Below, one piece after another: positions 37 to 7,788 of a stretch of 64,000 nt of DNA. The notes below the pieces were generated by a model, which was given only the letters and a program-made list of their open reading frames with translations, made no database searches and was not told where the DNA came from. The DNA is from Terrimicrobiaceae bacterium (GTDB lineage: Bacteria > Verrucomicrobiota > Verrucomicrobiia > Chthoniobacterales > Terrimicrobiaceae). Both the position numbers and the translations under genes were made by a program. Where the stretch lies: the NCBI GenBank assembly GCA_044342325.1, contig JBIIPZ010000012.1:1-64000 (forward strand), in the 5' to 3' direction. Every line of letters begins with the position of its first letter. Position 1 is the stretch's first letter.

Positions 37-834
37 TCAATTCGGTTCATTGCGCTTCCTCGAAAGCGGTGCACGCCTCCCGAAGGTCAGGATGTCTGAT
101 CTTGCGAAGTTTGTGCTTTCTTCGGCGATATCGACATCCATGATCCGGCTGTTCGCGGCCTCAAGGTTTGTGCGGTTTACGGCCAAGATTTCCTGCGCAA
201 ATGTCATGCGAGACTGCTCCGCACCATTGATGGCACGAAGTTCCGCAATATCTTGAATTGCAATTTCAAGCGCAGCAGATGCAGTTGTTGCGTAGTCCAC
301 TGTGGAAATTCCACCCGTCAGCGCTAAAATGTCGGTATCCACCGCATCAAGGTCGGCTTTGGTAATTCCGGCCGTTTGAGTTCCATTCTCCGAGGTAACA
401 ACTGACAATGTTTGACCGCTTGCTGCAAAGAGCGAGATGCCATTGAACTCTTCCGCCAGTAAATCGGACATGTTGGCCTGCAACTCGACAAATTCCTTAT
501 GATAGAGTGCTGTATCGTTGGTTGACACGGTGTCAACCGAAGCCAATGTGGCCAACTCTGCCATGCGAAGGGCGATGGATGATGCCACTTGCAGAACGCC
601 ATCCTGCGATTGCAGGAAGGAAAGCGCATTTCCCACATTAGCAGATACGGCATCCGTGCGACGTATCGCCGCTGAGAGTTTCATTGAGACCGCCAAGCCG
701 CCTGGATCATCGACGGCGGAGTTGATTCGGTAACCGCTTGAAAGCCGGGTGAGGCTTTTTTGCAGATTGCGGTTGTTTTGGTTCAGATGGTAAGAAACCG
801 GCGAGGCGGCTCCTGTAGCATTAAGACTGATCAT
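37..834 (-). CDS. fliC: Short flagellin with aberrant C-terminus (last conserved D0 residues replaced)
   Basis: Flagellin N-terminal motif (RLSSGYRINSAVDDPGGLAVS) and C-terminal motif (GAEQSRM...LEAANSRIMDVDIAEE). It ends ILTFGRRAPLSRKRNEPN instead of ILQQAGTAMLAQANQ. Confidence 0.9.
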   Translation of the reverse strand: MISLNATGAASPVSYHLNQNNRNLQKSLTRLSSGYRINSAVDDPGGLAVSMKLSAAIRRTDAVSANVGNALSFLQSQDGVLQVASSIALRMAELATLASVDTVSTNDTALYHKEFVELQANMSDLLAEEFNGISLFAASGQTLSVVTSENGTQTAGITKADLDAVDTDILALTGGISTVDYATTASAALEIAIQDIAELRAINGAEQSRMTFAQEILAVNRTNLEAANSRIMDVDIAEESTNFARSDILTFGRRAPLSRKRNEPN

Positions 835-906
835 ATGATATTCCTTTCAATTTGCTTGCGGCTTCCGCGCCACGGACGGGTCGAAGTTTGAGTGCTCGGC
901 CTCACT
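835..906 (-). promoter_or_regulatory. Conserved flagellin 5' leader (AGTG-N8-CACT hairpin, GGA-hexaloop hairpin, GGA in Shine-Dalgarno)
   Basis: Sense strand AGTGAGGCCGAGCACT...GTGGC-GCGGAA-GCCGC...AAAGGAATATCAT-ATG; same layout as four other leaders. Confidence 0.75.
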
Positions 907-966
907 TTTGGATTTACACCAAATTTTTTTGTTTTTTAATAAGCTTTTGAAAAAACTAGGTTGAGA

Positions 967-2325
967 TTATAAAATGAGGTTGAACAAGGAACTGTTCATG
1001 GCCACATTAGATTGAGCGATGTAAGCCGTGCCCGCATCCTGCAGAAGCTTTAAACGGGAGAAGTTGACACTCTCGGCAGCAACATCTAAATCGCGAATCT
1101 CACCAAGGGATTCCGTGGCGTGATTCTTAAGCAAAGCATTGGAATCAATCAGATTTCTGATTCGGTTTTGCTTGGCACCATTTAGTGCGATGTATTGCGC
1201 GAGGGTGTCGAAATCGATTAATTCAGTTGTAATTAAAGAATCAACAATTCCATTAAGCGCAGCAGACATATCTGTGTTTGCGCTGGCTAGACTTCCGACC
1301 ACAGCCCCGCTTTGAGAAGTAAGTTGCCTTGTTTCAGTGTCAGAAGGGTCATTTGTAAACAAGTAAAAGTTTACATCATTAGATGATAGCTGTGATGCAA
1401 CACCATTTATTGTCACTCCAGGTTGAACTGGAGGCTCAGAAGGTTCATCTGTGAAGCCAATAACCACTTTTTTGGAGTCTGTATTTTGCCAACCGCCGGC
1501 CACATCAATTGCATCATAAACTCCATCTATCAGGGACTCTCCAAGGCCTCCAACGCCACCTGTAACTTGGCCCCGCAGAGAAGTAAGCTGAGAAGTAAGA
1601 TCTGGTATCGAGCTCACAAAAGCGCCTCCGTTTGGCGCTCTGAAGGTATGCCCTGAAAGGTCTAAACGATACCCAACAGCCTTTGCAGTCCAAGTAGATG
1701 CATTTAATCTAGTAGAGACAGAATTAATAAAACTGCTAATATTTAAGACCACATTATCAATGTATGGCCCCATACTTCCAGAAATATCTGCCAAAAAAAT
1801 CATCTCTAGTGGTTTAGGATCATTCTGCGTAGTAAGATTAAATTGAGATACTGTTTCAGCAGCACTATTGATTAAACCAGTATCGGCATCCATGGAATCC
1901 ATGTCGGAATCTGGCGAAAAGAGCCTTACTCCGTTGAACCTCTCATCACGAATTTGATAAATTTGCGCGATGAGACTGGCCTTCTCGGTGTCATAGATTG
2001 AGATATCCCCTTGTGACTTTATGACATCCTCTTTTTGGATTTCAATTTCTTGAATTCTCGCTAAGATACTCCCGACGCGCTTGAGGTAGGCTTCTTGGGT
2101 CTCTAAAAAGGAGAGCGTGTTTCCCAGGTTCTGACCGAGGGCCGATGACTGGAGCACCTTGTTATTAAACCTCGCCGAGACAGCTACTCCCGCCGGATCA
2201 TCGAAAGAGGAATTTATTCGCAATCCACTCGAAAGACGGGTTATGCTTTGCTTCAGGTTTTGGTTTGTTCTGGCTAAAGTCAATGAAGCAGACATGGGCG
2301 CAGCATTTGAACTTAAGTTGATCAT
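967..2325 (-). CDS. Flagellin with inserted von Willebrand factor A (MIDAS) domain
   Basis: Flagellin N-terminus (RLSSGLRINSSFDDPAGVAVS...FNGVRLF) and C-terminus (NGAKQNRI...IRDLDVAAES...LQDAGTAYIAQSN) flank a ~190-aa insert containing IFLADISGSM (DxSxS) and VVIGFTDEP. Confidence 0.88.
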   Translation of the reverse strand: MINLSSNAAPMSASLTLARTNQNLKQSITRLSSGLRINSSFDDPAGVAVSARFNNKVLQSSALGQNLGNTLSFLETQEAYLKRVGSILARIQEIEIQKEDVIKSQGDISIYDTEKASLIAQIYQIRDERFNGVRLFSPDSDMDSMDADTGLINSAAETVSQFNLTTQNDPKPLEMIFLADISGSMGPYIDNVVLNISSFINSVSTRLNASTWTAKAVGYRLDLSGHTFRAPNGGAFVSSIPDLTSQLTSLRGQVTGGVGGLGESLIDGVYDAIDVAGGWQNTDSKKVVIGFTDEPSEPPVQPGVTINGVASQLSSNDVNFYLFTNDPSDTETRQLTSQSGAVVGSLASANTDMSAALNGIVDSLITTELIDFDTLAQYIALNGAKQNRIRNLIDSNALLKNHATESLGEIRDLDVAAESVNFSRLKLLQDAGTAYIAQSNVAMNSSLFNLIL

Positions 2326-2362
2326 AAGAATTACTCTATATCATTTCTACAGAGCTCTGAGT

Positions 2363-2391
2363 TTCATGCGAGATCAGGAATCTCACATGAA
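2363..2391 (-). other. Stem-loop between the 288-aa flagellin and the vWA-flagellin (no U-tract)
   Basis: TTCATGCGAGAT-CAGGA-ATCTCACATGAA inverted repeat on the + strand; no poly-U follows on the minus strand. Confidence 0.55.
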
Positions 2392-2429
2392 GCCGGTTAA
2401 CCGTGATAGGTTGTAAAAAACAGATGTTT

Positions 2430-3296
2430 TCAGACCAGCAACCGCAAGAGCGACTGGTTGGACTGATTCGCCTGCGCAAGCATTGCTGTTCCAGCTTGCT
2501 GCAGGATGTTCAAGCGAGCCAAGTTCGCGCTTTCTGCTGCGATATCCACATCCGTGATGCGACCGTTGGCTGCTTCGAGATTGGTTTTATTCACCGCAAG
2601 CATATCGGCAGCGAAAGTAAGGCGCACTTGCTCAGATCCATTGGTGGCACGGAGCGTTGCCAATGTTTGGATGGCTTCCGTGATATTGGAAATAGCAGCA
2701 GCAGCTCCTGTTGCGGAAGCAAAGACATCATCTGCAACAATGTCTCCAGTCGAAGAGCTAGTTCCTACGTATCCACTAACAGCAGCTAAATCAAGCTGGG
2801 AAATACCAATAGTCTGCGCACCATCTTCAGAAGTAACAACTTGAAAAGTAACATTGTCTACAGTTGTGTTCAATGTTGCCGAAGAGGCAAATAGACTCAC
2901 GCCATTGAATTTCTCGCCGAGCATGGAAACGATTTGAGATTGTAACGATTCATATTCCGTCTGATACAATGCAGTATCGGTGGAAGACTTTGTAACGTCC
3001 GTCGCCAACTGAATAAGCTCTGACATACGGTTCACCACCTTCTCGGCGCTCTTTAAGACCCCGTCCTGTGTCTGTAACGCTGAAAGCGCATTGTTCACAT
3101 TGGCTTGGGTTGCCTCTGTGCGGCGGATTGAGGCTGACAACTTCATCGAGACTGCCAGACCACCAGCGTCGTCCATCGAAGAATTAATACGCGATCCGCT
3201 CGAAAGCCGGTTGAGGCTCCGTTGCAGGTTCACATTGGTGTTTGAGAGGTTATACGCCGCCGACGTGGACGCCGTGTTTGTGTTTAGACTGATCAT
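2430..3296 (-). CDS. fliC: Short flagellin (288 aa)
   Basis: Complete flagellin N- and C-terminal motifs with a minimal variable region. Confidence 0.96.
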   Translation of the reverse strand: MISLNTNTASTSAAYNLSNTNVNLQRSLNRLSSGSRINSSMDDAGGLAVSMKLSASIRRTEATQANVNNALSALQTQDGVLKSAEKVVNRMSELIQLATDVTKSSTDTALYQTEYESLQSQIVSMLGEKFNGVSLFASSATLNTTVDNVTFQVVTSEDGAQTIGISQLDLAAVSGYVGTSSSTGDIVADDVFASATGAAAAISNITEAIQTLATLRATNGSEQVRLTFAADMLAVNKTNLEAANGRITDVDIAAESANLARLNILQQAGTAMLAQANQSNQSLLRLLV

Positions 3297-3380
3297 TTTA
3301 GTATTCCTTTACTTTTATTTATTTGTGCAGCTTCCGCGCTGCTATCGGGCCGCTTTAACTTTAAGTGTTCGACCTCACTT
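3297..3380 (-). promoter_or_regulatory. Conserved flagellin 5' leader
   Basis: AAGTG-AGGTCGAA-CACTT...GCGGCCCG...GCAGC-GCGGAA-GCTGC...AAAGGAATACTAAA-ATG. Confidence 0.78.
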
Positions 3381-3400
3381 ATTTTTTTCTGATTGAATTT

Positions 3401-3428
3401 AACCACAGAGGACACGGAGAGCACGGAG
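3401..3428 (+). repeat. 9-bp-periodic intergenic repeat (CACRGAG type)
   Basis: AACCACAGAGGACACGGAGAGCACGGAG; related copies at 4545-4572, 45740-45767 and 55696-55721. Confidence 0.7.
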
Positions 3429-3566
3429 GGGGGGCTCCGTAGGCTTATGCACTTTAAGAAAAATACTTTTTTTATTTTACAATACTCACCAGGATATTGG
3501 CTTCCATGCTTCTATCCCGATGAAGATATTGTTCATTAAATTTTGTTAACGGTCTTTGAGAATTCC

Positions 3567-4433
3567 TCAGACGAGCAAGCGCAGGACGGATTGATTCGCC
3601 TGATTCGCTTGGGCAAGCATCGCTGTTCCAGCTTGTTGCAGGATGTTCAAGCGAGCCAAGTTGGCGCTTTCGGATGCAATATCTACATCTGTGATTCGAC
3701 CGTTTGCCGCTTCGAGGTTAGTTTTATTGATCGCAAGCATATCTGCTGCAAATGTCAAACGAACCTGCTCCGAACCATTGGTGGCACGAAGTTCTGCGAG
3801 AGTTTGAATAGCAAGCGTGATATTGCTAATGGCAGCAGCAGCACCTGTGGCTGATGTAAAGGCGTCCGCAGGATCAATCTCTCCAGCATTACCTGAAGCA
3901 GTTCCGACATACCCACCAACGGCTCCCAAGTCCAATTTAGAAATATCAATTCTCTGCTCACCATCCTGTGATGTAACAACTTCCAGCGAAGCATTATCGA
4001 TAGCCACATTTACTCCACCCGCAGTGAACAAGTTGATACCGTTAAACTGCTCACCAAGCATGGATCCTAGTTGGGACTGAAGGGATTGATACTCTGTTTT
4101 ATACAATGCCGTATCAGTTGTGGACTTTGTGACGTCTGCAGCCAACTGAATAAGCTCAGACATCCGGCTTACCACTTTCTCCGCTGTCTTTAATACTCCA
4201 TCTTGAGTCTCAAGGTAGGAAAGTGCGTTATTTACATTGGCTTGGGTGGCTTCCGTCCTACGGATGGAAGCTGACAACTTCATTGAGACGGCCAAACCAC
4301 CGGCGTCGTCCATCGAGGAGTTGATGCGTGAACCGCTCGAAAGCCGATTTAGGCTCCGTTGGAGGTTCACATTGGTGTTACCCAGGTTGTAGGCTGCAGA
4401 TGTTGCTGCAGTATTTGTGTTGATGCTGATCAT
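3567..4433 (-). CDS. fliC: Short flagellin (288 aa)
   Basis: Complete flagellin motifs; closest paralogue of 2430..3296. Confidence 0.96.
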   Translation of the reverse strand: MISINTNTAATSAAYNLGNTNVNLQRSLNRLSSGSRINSSMDDAGGLAVSMKLSASIRRTEATQANVNNALSYLETQDGVLKTAEKVVSRMSELIQLAADVTKSTTDTALYKTEYQSLQSQLGSMLGEQFNGINLFTAGGVNVAIDNASLEVVTSQDGEQRIDISKLDLGAVGGYVGTASGNAGEIDPADAFTSATGAAAAISNITLAIQTLAELRATNGSEQVRLTFAADMLAINKTNLEAANGRITDVDIASESANLARLNILQQAGTAMLAQANQANQSVLRLLV

Positions 4434-4512
4434 TTTAGTATTCCTTTACTTTTGTGTTTTTGCAGCTTCCGCGCTGCCTTCGGGCGATTTTTTCAAGTGT
4501 TTGGCCTCACTT
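4434..4512 (-). promoter_or_regulatory. Conserved flagellin 5' leader
   Basis: AAGTG-AGGCCAAA-CACTT...CGCCCG...GCAGC-GCGGAA-GCTGC...AAAGGAATACTAAA-ATG. Confidence 0.75.
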
Positions 4513-4638
4513 TTTGGAGTTGTTCCAAAATTCTTTTGTTTTTTCACCACGGAGAACACGGAGGTCACGGAGAAGTTTTTGGAGCTCATCTGACTGTGTT
4601 TTGTGGTTCATGGTTAAAATTTGGTTTTTTTGACTGAA

Positions 4639-4698
4639 TCGAAGCGGAGCGGAGAAAGACTGCCCTTGGCAGCCCATGGGGCGAGCGCAGCGAGTCAA
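4639..4698 (+). mobile_element. Short double-hairpin element ending GCGAGTCAA, inserted in a 9-bp repeat
   Basis: TCGA...CTGCC-CTT-GGCAG/GCCC-ATG-GGGC...GCGAGTCAA. Removing it restores TTGACTGAA TTGACGGAA TTAACAAAA, matching the uninterrupted repeat at 4975. Confidence 0.55.
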
Positions 4699-5576
4699 TT
4701 GACGGAATTAACAAAATTGTCGGATCGCTACGAGGTGGGAGGCTGCTAAGCGACAGAGCGGTTGCTTTTCGGCATTGCGATGTGTCTGTTCCTTGAGCTG
4801 AGTAAGCCCTTTGGTTATTGTGTTCCGGTTTTTCACCAGTTTTGTTTCCTTTTCGGTAATTCGTCTGTCTTTTAGTTCATTCTATTTTCCATCCGTGGAT
4901 TCCGGCTGTATGGCGTCCTTGCCTGGCCTAGGGTTATTGTTTTTGTGAAAGTGGGTTTGGAGGGGGCTGGTTTTTTGACAGAATTGACGGAATTAACAAA
5001 ATGGCAGGATTTCCGTGAGATAGGATACTGGTATGAGGCAGTGCTGTGGCTTTTCGGCTTTGCAACGCGCCTCTTCCTTAAGCTCTATAAGCTCTTTGGT
5101 TATTTTTTTCCGGTTTTTCACCAGTTTTGTTTCCTCTTCGGTAATTCGCCCGTCGTTTAGTTCATTCTGTTTTCCATCCGTGGATTGCGGCTGTATGGCG
5201 TCCTTGCCTGGCCTAGTTTAATTGTTTTATTGGGAAATTAAGTTCAGAGGGGTTGGTGGTTTTTTTGACAGAATTGACAGAATTGACAGAATTGACAGGA
5301 TTGACGGGTTTAAAAAAATGGCAGGATTTCCGTGAGATAGGATGCCGGTATGAGGCAGTGCTGTGGCTTTTCGGCTTTGCAGCGCTTTAGGCGGTCTTTG
5401 GTTATTTTGTTCCGGTTTTTCACCAGTTTTGTTTCCTTTTCGGTAATTCGCCTGTCGTTTAGTTCATTCTATTTTTCATCCGTGGATTCCGGCTGTGTGG
5501 CGTCCTTGCCTGGCCTAGGGTTATTGTTTTATTGGGAAATTAAGTTTAGAGGGGTTGGTGGTTTTTTTTCAGAATT
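4699..5576 (-). ncRNA. Three tandem ~290-bp non-coding units rich in GGA motifs; candidate CsrA-binding (CsrB/RsmY-like) RNA
   Basis: Near-identical ~135-bp cores at 4810-4944, 5095-5228 and 5397-5530. The minus strand has GGC-AAGGAC-GCC in all copies, TCC-ACGGAT-GGA in two, and further GGA motifs in A-rich context. The repeat is certain; the RNA function is inferred. Confidence 0.45.
5265..5309 (+). repeat. Tandem 9-mer (TTGACAGAA)n
   Basis: TTGACAGAA x3, then TTGACAGGA and TTGACGGGT. Confidence 0.85.
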
Positions 5577-5637
5577 ATGCGATCATCAGGAGCTTGGAGA
5601 CTGTAATCGTCATTGCGGTTACTTTCATCCAGCCTGG

Positions 5638-5669
5638 ATTGGGGCGGGGTTTAAATCCCCCGCCCCAAT
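5638..5669 (-). other. Strong GC stem-loop 3' of flagellin, no U-tract (stability element or partial terminator)
   Basis: ATTGGGGCGGGG-N8-CCCCGCCCCAAT; homologous stem at 6735-6761. Confidence 0.65.
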
Positions 5670-5688
5670 ACCTCGGTTACCCTGATTC

Positions 5689-6558
5689 TTAGCTAATCAG
5701 TCGGAGGATGGACTGGGTAGATTGGTTCGCCTGGGCGAGCATCGCTGTGCCGGCTTGCTGCAGGATGTTGTAGCGGGCGAGCTTCGTGCTTTCGTCGGCA
5801 ACATCCACATCGAGGATGCGGCTGTTTGCAGACTCGAGGTTGGTTTTGTTCACTGCGAGCATGTCCGCAGCGAAGGTCAACCGGGACTGCTCGGCACCGT
5901 TGTTGGCGCGGAGTGTGGCTAGGTTTTGTATAGCGTCTTGGATGTAACCAACTGCATCATTAGCGTCAGCAGTGGTGCTAATGTCCATATTACTGCCCGA
6001 ATTTGTGTTACAGATATCAAAGACGATCTGATTCAAATCCACTTGTGTGATACCAACAGTCTGATTGCCATCGTGTGATGTAACCACTGTGAGAGTGGAA
6101 CTCTGGCTGATAACTGCATTGTTGGCAGAGGAACTTGCCCCCTCGCTAAACAGACTAATGCCATTGAACTCTTCATCGAGCATCAAAGTGAGCTGGCCCT
6201 TCAGTTGGGTCAGTTCCGTGTTGTAAAGAGCGAGGTCGCTGGTAGATTTGGTCACATCTTGAGCCAGCGTGGCGAGTTCTGACATGCGGTTGAGAATTTT
6301 ATCCGCTGTCTTGATAACTCCGTCCTGAGTTTGAAGGAAGGCGATGGAGTTGTTGACATTGGCCAGGGTGGCGTCTGTGCGGCGGATGGAAGCACTCATC
6401 TTCATGGACACGGCGAGGCCTCCGGCGTCGTCGTAGGATGAGTTGATGCGTGAACCGCTGGAGAGCCTGTTGAGGCTACGCTGGAGGTTCACATTGGTGT
6501 TGCTGAGGTTGTAGGCAGCCGATGTGGCTGCTGAGTTGGTGTTGATTACTACTGACAT
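5689..6558 (-). CDS. fliC: Short flagellin (289 aa)
   Basis: MSVVINTN...RLSSGSRINS and RILDVDVADES...QQAGTAMLAQANQ. Confidence 0.97.
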   Translation of the reverse strand: MSVVINTNSAATSAAYNLSNTNVNLQRSLNRLSSGSRINSSYDDAGGLAVSMKMSASIRRTDATLANVNNSIAFLQTQDGVIKTADKILNRMSELATLAQDVTKSTSDLALYNTELTQLKGQLTLMLDEEFNGISLFSEGASSSANNAVISQSSTLTVVTSHDGNQTVGITQVDLNQIVFDICNTNSGSNMDISTTADANDAVGYIQDAIQNLATLRANNGAEQSRLTFAADMLAVNKTNLESANSRILDVDVADESTKLARYNILQQAGTAMLAQANQSTQSILRLIS

Positions 6559-6630
6559 ATCCTTTGTCTTTCTATGGTGCGAAGTCCGTTTCGCTTTCGG
6601 GCCGCTTTGGTTCAGTGTTCGACCTCACTG
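6559..6630 (-). promoter_or_regulatory. Conserved flagellin 5' leader with canonical ANGGAN hexaloop
   Basis: CAGTG-AGGTCGAA-CACTG...GCGGCCCG...GCGAA-ACGGAC-TTCGC...AAAGGAT-ATG. Confidence 0.8.
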
Positions 6631-6734
6631 GTTTGACTAAATTTTATTGGACAGAATTACTGAATTTCAGAGTTGGAGGCTTTGCTTTTGTCTCAACTCT
6701 GTGGTTTGAACAGCTACTTTCGATGAGCCTGTAT

Positions 6735-6761
6735 TGGGGCGGGGTATGGTCCCCCGCCCCA
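6735..6761 (-). other. Strong GC stem-loop 3' of flagellin, no U-tract
   Basis: TGGGGCGGGG-N7-CCCCGCCCCA. Confidence 0.65.
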
Positions 6762-6782
6762 GTTACTCAGTTACCCTAATTC

Positions 6783-7664
6783 TTAGCTGATCAGTCGGAG
6801 AATCGACTGGGTCGATTGGTTCGCTTGAGCGAGCATCGCGGTGCCGGCCTGCTGCAGGATGTTGTAGCGGGCGAGTTTTGTGCTCTCGTCGGCGACATCC
6901 ACATCGAGGATGCGGCTGTTGGCGGCCTCGAGGTTCGTTTTGTTCACTGCGAGCATGTCCGCAGCGAAGGTCAACCGAGACTGCTCGGCGCCGTTGTTGG
7001 CGCGGAGTGTTGCCAAGTCTTGAATCGCGTCTTGGATATAATCCACGGCATTTTGAGCTGCTGTCGTGGTGGAGATATCCATATTGGAGCTGGAACCTGT
7101 GTTGGTGATGTCAAACACGATCTGGTTCAAGTCGACTTGAGTGATACCAACTGTTTGGTTGCCATCGTGTGATGTAACCACCGTGAGGGTTGGGTTGACA
7201 TCGATGGCGAGACCAGTTGCGGAGGCAGAGCCGCCGGCCGCGACGCCCTCTGAGAAGAGGCTAATGCCATTGAATTCTTCACTCAACATCAAGTTGAGCT
7301 GGCCCTTCAATTGTGTCAGTTCCGTGTTGTAGAGAGCGAGGTCGTTTGTAGATTTCGTCACATCTTGAGCGAGTGTGGCGAGTTCCGACATGCGGTTGAG
7401 GATTTTATCTGCGGTTTTGATGACTCCGTCCTGGGTTTGCAGGAAGGCGATGGAATTGTTGACATTGGCCAAGGTGGCGTCGGTGCGGCGGATGGAAGCG
7501 CTGAGCTTCATCGACACAGCGAGGCCGCCGGCGTCGTCGTAGGCTGAGTTGATGCGTGAACCGCTGGAGAGGCGATTAAGGCTTCTCTGGAGGTTGACGT
7601 TGGTGTTGCTGAGGTTGTAGGCAGCCGATGTGGCGGCTGAGTTGGTGTTGATTACTACTGACAT
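6783..7664 (-). CDS. fliC: Short flagellin (293 aa), first gene of the array
   Basis: Complete flagellin motifs; termini almost identical to 5689..6558. Confidence 0.97.
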   Translation of the reverse strand: MSVVINTNSAATSAAYNLSNTNVNLQRSLNRLSSGSRINSAYDDAGGLAVSMKLSASIRRTDATLANVNNSIAFLQTQDGVIKTADKILNRMSELATLAQDVTKSTNDLALYNTELTQLKGQLNLMLSEEFNGISLFSEGVAAGGSASATGLAIDVNPTLTVVTSHDGNQTVGITQVDLNQIVFDITNTGSSSNMDISTTTAAQNAVDYIQDAIQDLATLRANNGAEQSRLTFAADMLAVNKTNLEAANSRILDVDVADESTKLARYNILQQAGTAMLAQANQSTQSILRLIS

Positions 7665-7736
7665 ATCCTTTGTCTTTCTATGGTGCGAAGTCCGTCTCGC
7701 TGGCGGGCCGCTTTGGTTCAGTGTTCGACCTCACTG
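7665..7736 (-). promoter_or_regulatory. Conserved flagellin 5' leader with canonical ANGGAN hexaloop
   Basis: CAGTG-AGGTCGAA-CACTG...GCGGCCCG...GCGAG-ACGGAC-TTCGC...AAAGGAT-ATG. Confidence 0.8.
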
Positions 7737-7760
7737 GGGGAGTTTCCTCCGTTAGGTTAT

Positions 7761-7788
7761 CTATCGGCAGACAATTGATGGGGCTTTA
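7761..7788 (-). promoter_or_regulatory. Sigma28 (FliA/SigD)-type promoter
   Basis: Minus strand TAAA-N16-GCCGATAG, ~100 nt upstream of the first flagellin ATG; known consensus TAAA-N15/16-GCCGATAA. Confidence 0.85.

Follow-up and report, generated by a model that had tools for sequence, protein, structure and literature searches.

What might a flagellar filament gain from a subunit that carries a von Willebrand factor A (VWA) domain where flagellins have their outer domains? The question is raised by a gene at 967–2325, on the minus strand of a 64,000-nt stretch of DNA from a Terrimicrobiaceae bacterium. The window, as we call this stretch, covers the opening 64 kb of contig 9 in a genome of 2.93 Mb (78 contigs, 86% complete). 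The gene encodes 452 amino acids (aa) plus a stop codon in one open frame, with both flagellin ends above their Pfam cut-offs. We find that it is an intact flagellin with a VWA domain at the D2/D3 position. The domain has the residues of a metal site, and relatives appear to exchange it as a unit.

The flagellin identity rests on both ends of the protein. When the whole protein is searched, Flagellin_N (PF00669) matches aa 5–137 at 63.7 bits (cut-off 26.6) and Flagellin_C (PF00700) matches aa 381–450 at 32.3 bits (cut-off 23). The N-terminal D0/D1 part (aa 1–138; 1912–2325, minus strand, as are all parts of the gene) is modelled as helices at aa 8–32, 44–98 and 105–126, and the C-terminal D1/D0 part (aa 376–452 and the stop codon; 967–1200) as a helix at aa 372–451. 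A linker or neck of short beta strands (aa 139–166; 1828–1911) follows the N-terminal part. Its strands are of low confidence, with a predicted local distance difference test (pLDDT) score of 46–69 in the full model; in a model of the insert alone they lie at positions 4–9 and 17–22 with pLDDT 53–65. The foreign globular domain then occupies about 200 aa (core aa 167–368; 1222–1827), within the interval aa 137–381 left between the flagellin ends. Its codons are AT-rich at third positions, where GC content (GC3) is 0.296 vs 0.531 and 0.519 in the two flagellin parts. A first-pass annotation, made from the sequence alone, had described intact flagellin ends around an insert more AT-rich than the 5' flagellin part, and the Pfam scores and GC3 values agree with it.

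We also considered whether the gene encodes FlgL and dismissed this: the TIGR02550 score is 57.2 bits (cut-off 127.2), and another Flagellin_N-type frame adjoins fliW-csrA on contig 24.

The VWA domain and its metal site

Structure prediction and remote homologs both identify the insert as a VWA domain. The predicted structure of the insert (pLDDT 88.6, predicted TM-score 0.83) is an alpha/beta fold with a central sheet flanked by helices, like solved VWA domains. Among the 50 Foldseek matches listed for this model, all are integrin beta chains (best 9p6s_B, E 2.3e-10, TM 0.62). At the sequence level, a phmmer search of the insert against PDB sequences gives nothing meaningful (best E 1.4). 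A profile built from a flank-free alignment of the insert and 20 standalone relatives matches integrin beta-8 in the PDB with E 7.2e-9. Three motif blocks align: the profile consensus 'DiVfliDvtgSM' with DLYYLVDVSASM, 'gGgdepEslLDa' with SGNIDTPEGGFDA and 'vvvfTDa' with LLVMTDQ.

Relatives of the insert give the same assignment. A word-seeded search with aa 140–380 finds 22 proteins, three of which have a precomputed PF00092 match. VWA-type Pfam matches among 17 aligned flagellin relatives are to VWA_4 (5), VWA_2 (5), VWA (3) and Integrin_beta (2). Unlike the protein studied here, relatives at 55–59% insert identity exceed VWA cut-offs (5 of the 17 match VWA models). An exhaustive phmmer search of 1.84 billion representatives returns 90 proteins at E <= 1e-3, of which 12 reach E <= 1e-10. 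We scanned 24 of the 90; 14 have a flagellin end, 10 of these 14 also match a VWA model (8 above the curated cut-off), and 6 have all three parts (Flagellin_N, VWA and Flagellin_C). The first-pass annotation had proposed that the insert folds as a VWA domain at the D2/D3 position, and this is now supported by the structure model, Foldseek, the relatives and the integrin beta-8 profile match.

Judged by sequence and model, the domain has a complete and conserved set of motifs for a metal ion-dependent adhesion site (MIDAS). The set takes the form DxSxS ... T/E ... D, and D180, S182, S184, E263 and D293 are all present. The DxSxS motif is DISGS (aa 180–184; 1774–1788), followed by an invariant M185. 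The last MIDAS Asp, D293 (1447–1449), is also invariant and lies in FTDE (aa 291–294; 1444–1455). Both motifs sit at exactly the coordinates that the first-pass annotation gave them. Between them, E263 (1537–1539) aligns with the Glu of integrin-beta 'PEGGFDA' and pairs with the Glu of 'DTPEGGFDAM' in integrin beta-8, so the fourth MIDAS residue is Glu, not Thr; some relatives read 'GGGTPGE', with both Thr and Glu present. D180, S184, M185, E263 and D293 are invariant across 33 sequences, down to 22% identity, and S182 is nearly so; E263 is invariant in a set of 24 sequences as well.

The fourth MIDAS residue is Glu in integrin beta I domains and Thr in alpha-I and VWF-type domains. By its aligned residues, the MIDAS of the insert is of the integrin-beta type. 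The MIDAS proposed in the first-pass annotation is therefore kept, and refined by Glu263 standing where alpha-I and VWF-type domains have Thr. Integrin beta domains have two further metal sites flanking this one, whose residues we take to be an acidic pair after DxSxSM and an Asp and a Pro before the Glu. These residues are missing from the insert; standalone relatives retain 'GGGDxPE'. We therefore call the domain 'beta-I-like' and do not count it as an integrin-type domain with all three metals. Both chain termini of a VWA fold lie opposite the MIDAS, and because of this topology the metal site is predicted to point outward.

The architecture itself is not new; it is catalogued and unstudied. 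In a survey of 26,587 flagellins, 'vWFA (von Willibrand Factor A)' is the eighth commonest domain of the hypervariable region, with a frequency of 21 (Eckhard et al. 2017, PMC5595980, Table 1). A 2024 survey sorted flagellin outer domains into 682 clusters, and its Supplementary file 2 contains 22 UniProt flagellins with PF00669, PF00700 and PF00092 (clusters 146, 164, 192, 423, 587 and 606); these rows are mostly from Bacillales and Clostridia, with none from Verrucomicrobia (PMC11532411). Neither paper takes up VWA flagellins in the main text, and the words VWA, Willebrand, integrin and Rossmann are absent from that of the 2024 survey. In the ESM Atlas, two clusters have this architecture (125 and 151 members, Bacillota commonest; scores 0.83 and 0.81), which we treat as leads only. 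Full-text literature searches, judged on titles and abstracts, found no paper characterising a VWA flagellin. The first-pass annotation had named no characterised VWA flagellin and had listed an earlier description of the architecture among the grounds for refutation. The two surveys supply such a description as far as listing goes; the architecture does appear to be uncharacterised. What the present lineage adds is a new phylum for VWA flagellins, Verrucomicrobiota.

The protein can be placed among several known systems. The surveyed vWFA flagellins have the same order of Flagellin_N, VWA and Flagellin_C, carry a domain of about 175–240 aa in the hypervariable position and are mostly 437–500 aa long; their entries have a PF00092 match and ours has none. 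Flagellinolysin likewise carries a foreign functional domain in the flagellin hypervariable region, with a scattered distribution that suggests transfer (PMC5595980). Its domain is a gluzincin peptidase with HExxH, whereas the insert has a VWA fold and no HExxH; and its filament incorporation and activity have been demonstrated, whereas those of the VWA-flagellin are predictions. To the integrin beta I domain the insert is only ~14% identical, and it lacks the hybrid-domain insertion context and an alpha-subunit partner. The closest non-flagellin relatives are standalone VWA proteins of ~235 aa (Pfam VWA_4 type, 20–27% identity), in which the D, S, M, E, D and D residues are invariant. They differ in having no flagellin ends and in keeping 'GGGDxPE'.

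Cassette exchange and constraint

Across relatives, the identity of the flanks to the VWA-flagellin is uncoupled from the identity of the insert. P0009 is 92% identical in the insert, with 62% in the N flank and 64% in the C flank; the corresponding values are 82%, 45% and 47% for P0011, and 71%, 47% and 42% for P0013. P0015 has an insert identity of 63% between flanks at 94% (N) and 100% (C), P0017 has 61% between 93% and 96%, and P0018 has 61% between 92% and 99%. The N-truncated P0023, for which no N flank is available, combines an insert at 31% with a C flank at 100%.

The same mosaic is seen in nucleotides. Compared to the gene at locus L002, identity is 97–100% at aa 1–60 and 376–450 and 41–66% at aa 166–360, with transitions at about aa 150–170 and 350–375. 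Values for two further loci, L004 and L005, coincide with those for L001 and L002, which leaves two independent genomes behind this result. Both alleles have low GC3 in the insert. Mosaicism of this kind between relatives, with flanks at 97–100% and the insert at 41–66% nucleotide identity, is novel here.

Variability in the insert does not exceed that of the N-terminal core (mean column entropy over 17 relatives 0.98 vs 1.24 bits), which is the reverse of the usual flagellin pattern. The longest indels of the insert, at three sites of 9, 9 and 18 columns, come after aa 224, 253 and 327; the topology of the fold would place them in the beta2-beta3, alpha2-alpha3 and beta5-alpha5 loops, on the MIDAS or ligand face. 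As far as the alignments tell, the domain acts as an exchangeable cassette, not as a drifting hypervariable region. Domain capture, which the first-pass annotation had suggested as the origin of the gene, fits the composition break, the sharp breakpoints in nucleotide identity and the domain tree described below.

Function and competing explanations

We propose that in this flagellin paralogue of a freshwater Verrucomicrobiota bacterium, the outer D2/D3 region has been replaced by a single integrin beta-I-type VWA domain, with a putative MIDAS-type metal site built from D180, S182, S184, E263 and D293. Export would run through the flagellar type III apparatus, and the protein would be incorporated into the filament together with the five short flagellins encoded next to it, probably under its own regulation and possibly as a minor component. 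Its metal site would face outward from the axis of the filament, carry Mg2+ or Mn2+ and engage an acidic group on a ligand, as happens in integrins and in the adhesins of pilus tips. A filament of this kind would be an adhesin with many binding sites for particles, algae or polymers, and its binding would be sensitive to ethylenediaminetetraacetic acid (EDTA). A minor subunit and a metal-dependent adhesive filament were also what the first-pass annotation had proposed. The VWA domains of known tip adhesins of pili (PitA, SpaC, Mfa5, PilB) and of LapA (vWFA) are found at pilus tips or within individual adhesin molecules, whereas the VWA-flagellin would repeat along the filament. Recombination in the conserved flagellin-coding flanks may swap VWA alleles, which would differ mainly by insertions in loops of the ligand-binding face and keep the metal-site residues unchanged.

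We consider cation-dependent adhesion by the filament the likeliest function, with a probability of roughly 0.5. A more elaborate version is speculative, and we would sooner doubt than accept it: part of the filament would form a repeating, integrin-beta-like, cation-dependent receptor array; its ligand face would be re-tooled between strains by swaps of the VWA cassette between unchanged flagellin flanks, akin to H-antigen variation in a binding domain; and the subunit would be switched on apart from the CsrA/FliW-controlled structural flagellins, turning propeller into anchor.

Flagella are known to aid adhesion, and a dedicated receptor domain within flagellin is unstudied. Only the peptidase flagellins show the exposed region carrying a working foreign domain, and VWA flagellins have been catalogued since 2017 without follow-up. 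To these the present lineage contributes a well-modelled example with a fully conserved, apparently integrin-beta-type metal site, evidence for stronger constraint on the domain than on the filament core, and clear recombination breakpoints that point to a domain traded as a cassette. It is a good starting point for asking if a filament acts as a metal-dependent adhesin in plankton-particle interactions, and a natural template for the display of binding domains on flagella.

Several observations count against this proposal. In Pfam and NCBIfam the whole protein matches flagellin models only, with no VWA match at E <= 0.1, and the insert alone matches only VWA_CoxE in Pfam, at 13.1 bits (below the cut-off of 26.4). 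Where integrin beta and standalone domains have 'D-x-P' ahead of the Glu, this sequence has G-L-G (GGLGE), and no acidic pair follows DISGSM (the sequence reads DISGSMGPYID). One metal site is to be expected from these residues, the only plausible one, instead of three as in integrin beta, and both its geometry and its outward orientation are themselves predictions. The D0/D1 regions are only 39–44% (N) and 28–43% (C) identical to those of the five neighbouring flagellins, which are 57–96% (N) and 57–99% (C) identical among themselves. Flagellin_C scores only 32 bits in the VWA-flagellin vs 73–77 bits in the four intact neighbours. Because of this divergence and low score, co-polymerisation with the neighbours is unproven. 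The gene also lacks the leader common to the five short genes, as well as its AAAGGA box. The insert is rare, occurring in 2 of 101 other genomes of the family (both in the same genus, 2 of 40) and in none of 58 high-quality genomes; as flagellin arrays assemble poorly, absence from a genome is weak evidence. Finally, the nearest non-flagellin relatives, the kinase-adjacent proteins of ~250 aa described below, are not known adhesins.

Other explanations account for parts of the data. The domain could be a structural or shielding outer coat, with a cation site that serves folding or subunit contacts and with allele swaps that provide escape from flagellum-binding phages or grazers instead of a choice of ligand. 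Conserved flanks around a swapped centre, as seen here, are the classic pattern of surface-antigen variation in flagellins. The indel hot spots are on what is presumably the most exposed face, and in other species outer domains reportedly influence motility by dimerising (PMC8931119), all of which would suit a coat. Yet pure antigenic drift is not expected to hold five motif residues invariant down to 22% identity, nor would it leave the insert as conserved as the core or more so, and we regard a coat as unlikely. We give still less credence to a protein that is exported and not polymerised, with the flagellar export apparatus as the secretion route for a free ligand-binding protein; Campylobacter FlaC is an example of a secreted flagellin homologue. 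Both Pfam flagellin ends exceed their cut-offs, long helices are predicted at both termini, and the termini are 92–100% conserved in several relatives, which suggests constraint on D0/D1. The gene also lies inside the flagellin array in all three genomes where we see it. These points stand against the divergent D0/D1, the low Flagellin_C score and the different upstream region without the shared leader, all of which would fit free export.

It is very improbable that the gene is an artefact of chimeric metagenome assembly or a decaying, functionless paralogue. The frame has no internal stop codons, and the same intact frame of 452–456 aa, with the same neighbours, is found in two other species-level genomes. 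The 22 matching database proteins come from several sources. A search of sequencing runs lists 24 lake or freshwater runs from 15 studies; in three of them at least half of the sampled words are present, and one of these three may come from the source sample. Suspicion of an artefact comes from the window beginning at a contig end, from the aberrant tail of the adjoining flagellin at 37–834, and from the tendency of flagellin arrays to break assemblies (most contigs bearing relatives are < 6 kb).

Flagellin array, upstream regions and origin

The VWA-flagellin gene is one of six flagellin genes in a tandem array on the minus strand, from 37 to 7664; the others are short (265–293 aa). Four of these lie upstream at 2430–3296 (288 aa), 3567–4433 (288 aa), 5689–6558 (289 aa) and 6783–7664 (293 aa). 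The fifth, at 37–834 (265 aa), is at the contig start and has an atypical C-terminal tail, TFGRRAPLSRKRNEPN; Flagellin_C matches it only at profile positions 4–65 of 86. Its counterpart in L001 (7055–7873, 272 aa) has a full C-terminus, and either a frameshift or the position at the edge of the assembly could explain the odd tail. FliD, FliS, FliW and CsrA are encoded in the same genome. In place of the 289-aa flagellin, L001 (1951–3390) and L002 (1901–3358) have another long flagellin, of 479 and 485 aa respectively, whose insert of ~250 aa has no Pfam match.

The five short genes share a leader of ~80 nt (835–915, 3297–3380, 4434–4517, 6559–6640 and about 7665–7745, minus strand). It comprises a conserved 'AGTGAGGyCGArCACT' block, a 5-bp hairpin whose loop contains GGA and, ahead of the start codon, AAAGGA as a Shine-Dalgarno box. 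Stem sequences of the hairpin vary between copies with pairing retained (GCAGC/GCUGC vs GCGAA/UUCGC). CsrA-controlled flagellin leaders have a similar appearance, and fliW and csrA are adjacent in this genome (G000:C24:604-1163). By this analogy, the shared leader looks like a CsrA/FliW-type control element. At gathering level, Rfam finds only one tRNA in the window, and the flagellin leaders match no curated family.

The spacer upstream of the VWA-flagellin gene (2326–2429, minus strand) has instead a 13-bp hairpin at 2363–2391 and a second hairpin at 2333–2355, stopping 8 nt short of the start codon. The upstream 100 nt fold with -29.1 kcal/mol (z -3.76; 0 of 200 shuffles are as stable), and the spacer has a mean column identity of 90% to L001 and L002. 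A VWA-flagellin leader unlike that of the five neighbouring genes is also novel here. Together with the divergent D0/D1 it would fit a separately controlled, specialised subunit, and it says nothing firm on abundance. Four RNA libraries of lake or freshwater origin, from three studies, contain contigs that cover 1030–1290 and 1880–2350 at 90–99% identity; DNA carry-over is possible, so they are not proof of transcription. No contig in these four runs covers the insert core at 1369–1824, which says nothing on expression of the insert.

The records with a species or lineage name that are closest to the insert are two metagenome-assembled genomes, one of Terrimicrobiaceae (91% insert identity) and one of Verrucomicrobia (55%). 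Among 400 other genomes sampled from the phylum, two match, both in non-flagellin frames of 254–262 aa. We built a quick IQ-TREE tree of 96 domain segments from 128 proteins, leaving out segments with < 150 profile positions and exact duplicates. Rows were labelled by id range and length, sampling is biased to relatives of the VWA-flagellin, and the root is arbitrary. All 38 flagellin-labelled rows fall on one side of a branch with an SH-like approximate likelihood ratio test (SH-aLRT) support of 93, joined by P0049 (a truncated flagellin) and P0034 (1561 aa, with FGE-sulfatase and Ig domains). The sister clade holds the standalone ~235-aa VWA proteins and some large proteins. Within these limits, the tree is consistent with a single capture of the VWA domain. 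The standalone VWA genes nearest the insert (~250 aa) have a Ser/Thr kinase gene immediately after them at both loci seen, in two unrelated Verrucomicrobiota genomes: the VWA gene at 1330–2088 with the kinase gene at 2–1063 in L006, and at 1471–2220 with 2242–3426 in L007.

Two further features were seen between and upstream of the short flagellin genes. At about 7761–7788 (minus strand), 5' of the flagellin at 6783–7664, TAAAG is followed after 15 nt by GCCGATAG, which we take to resemble the sigma-28 promoter consensus; we noticed no similar site upstream of the VWA-flagellin gene. At 4697–5530, a unit of ~247 nt, found nowhere else in a whole-genome search, is present in three direct copies spaced by 285 and 302 nt. 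The second and third copies are 83% and 64% identical to the first, and the repeats occupy the 1.25-kb gap between two flagellin genes.

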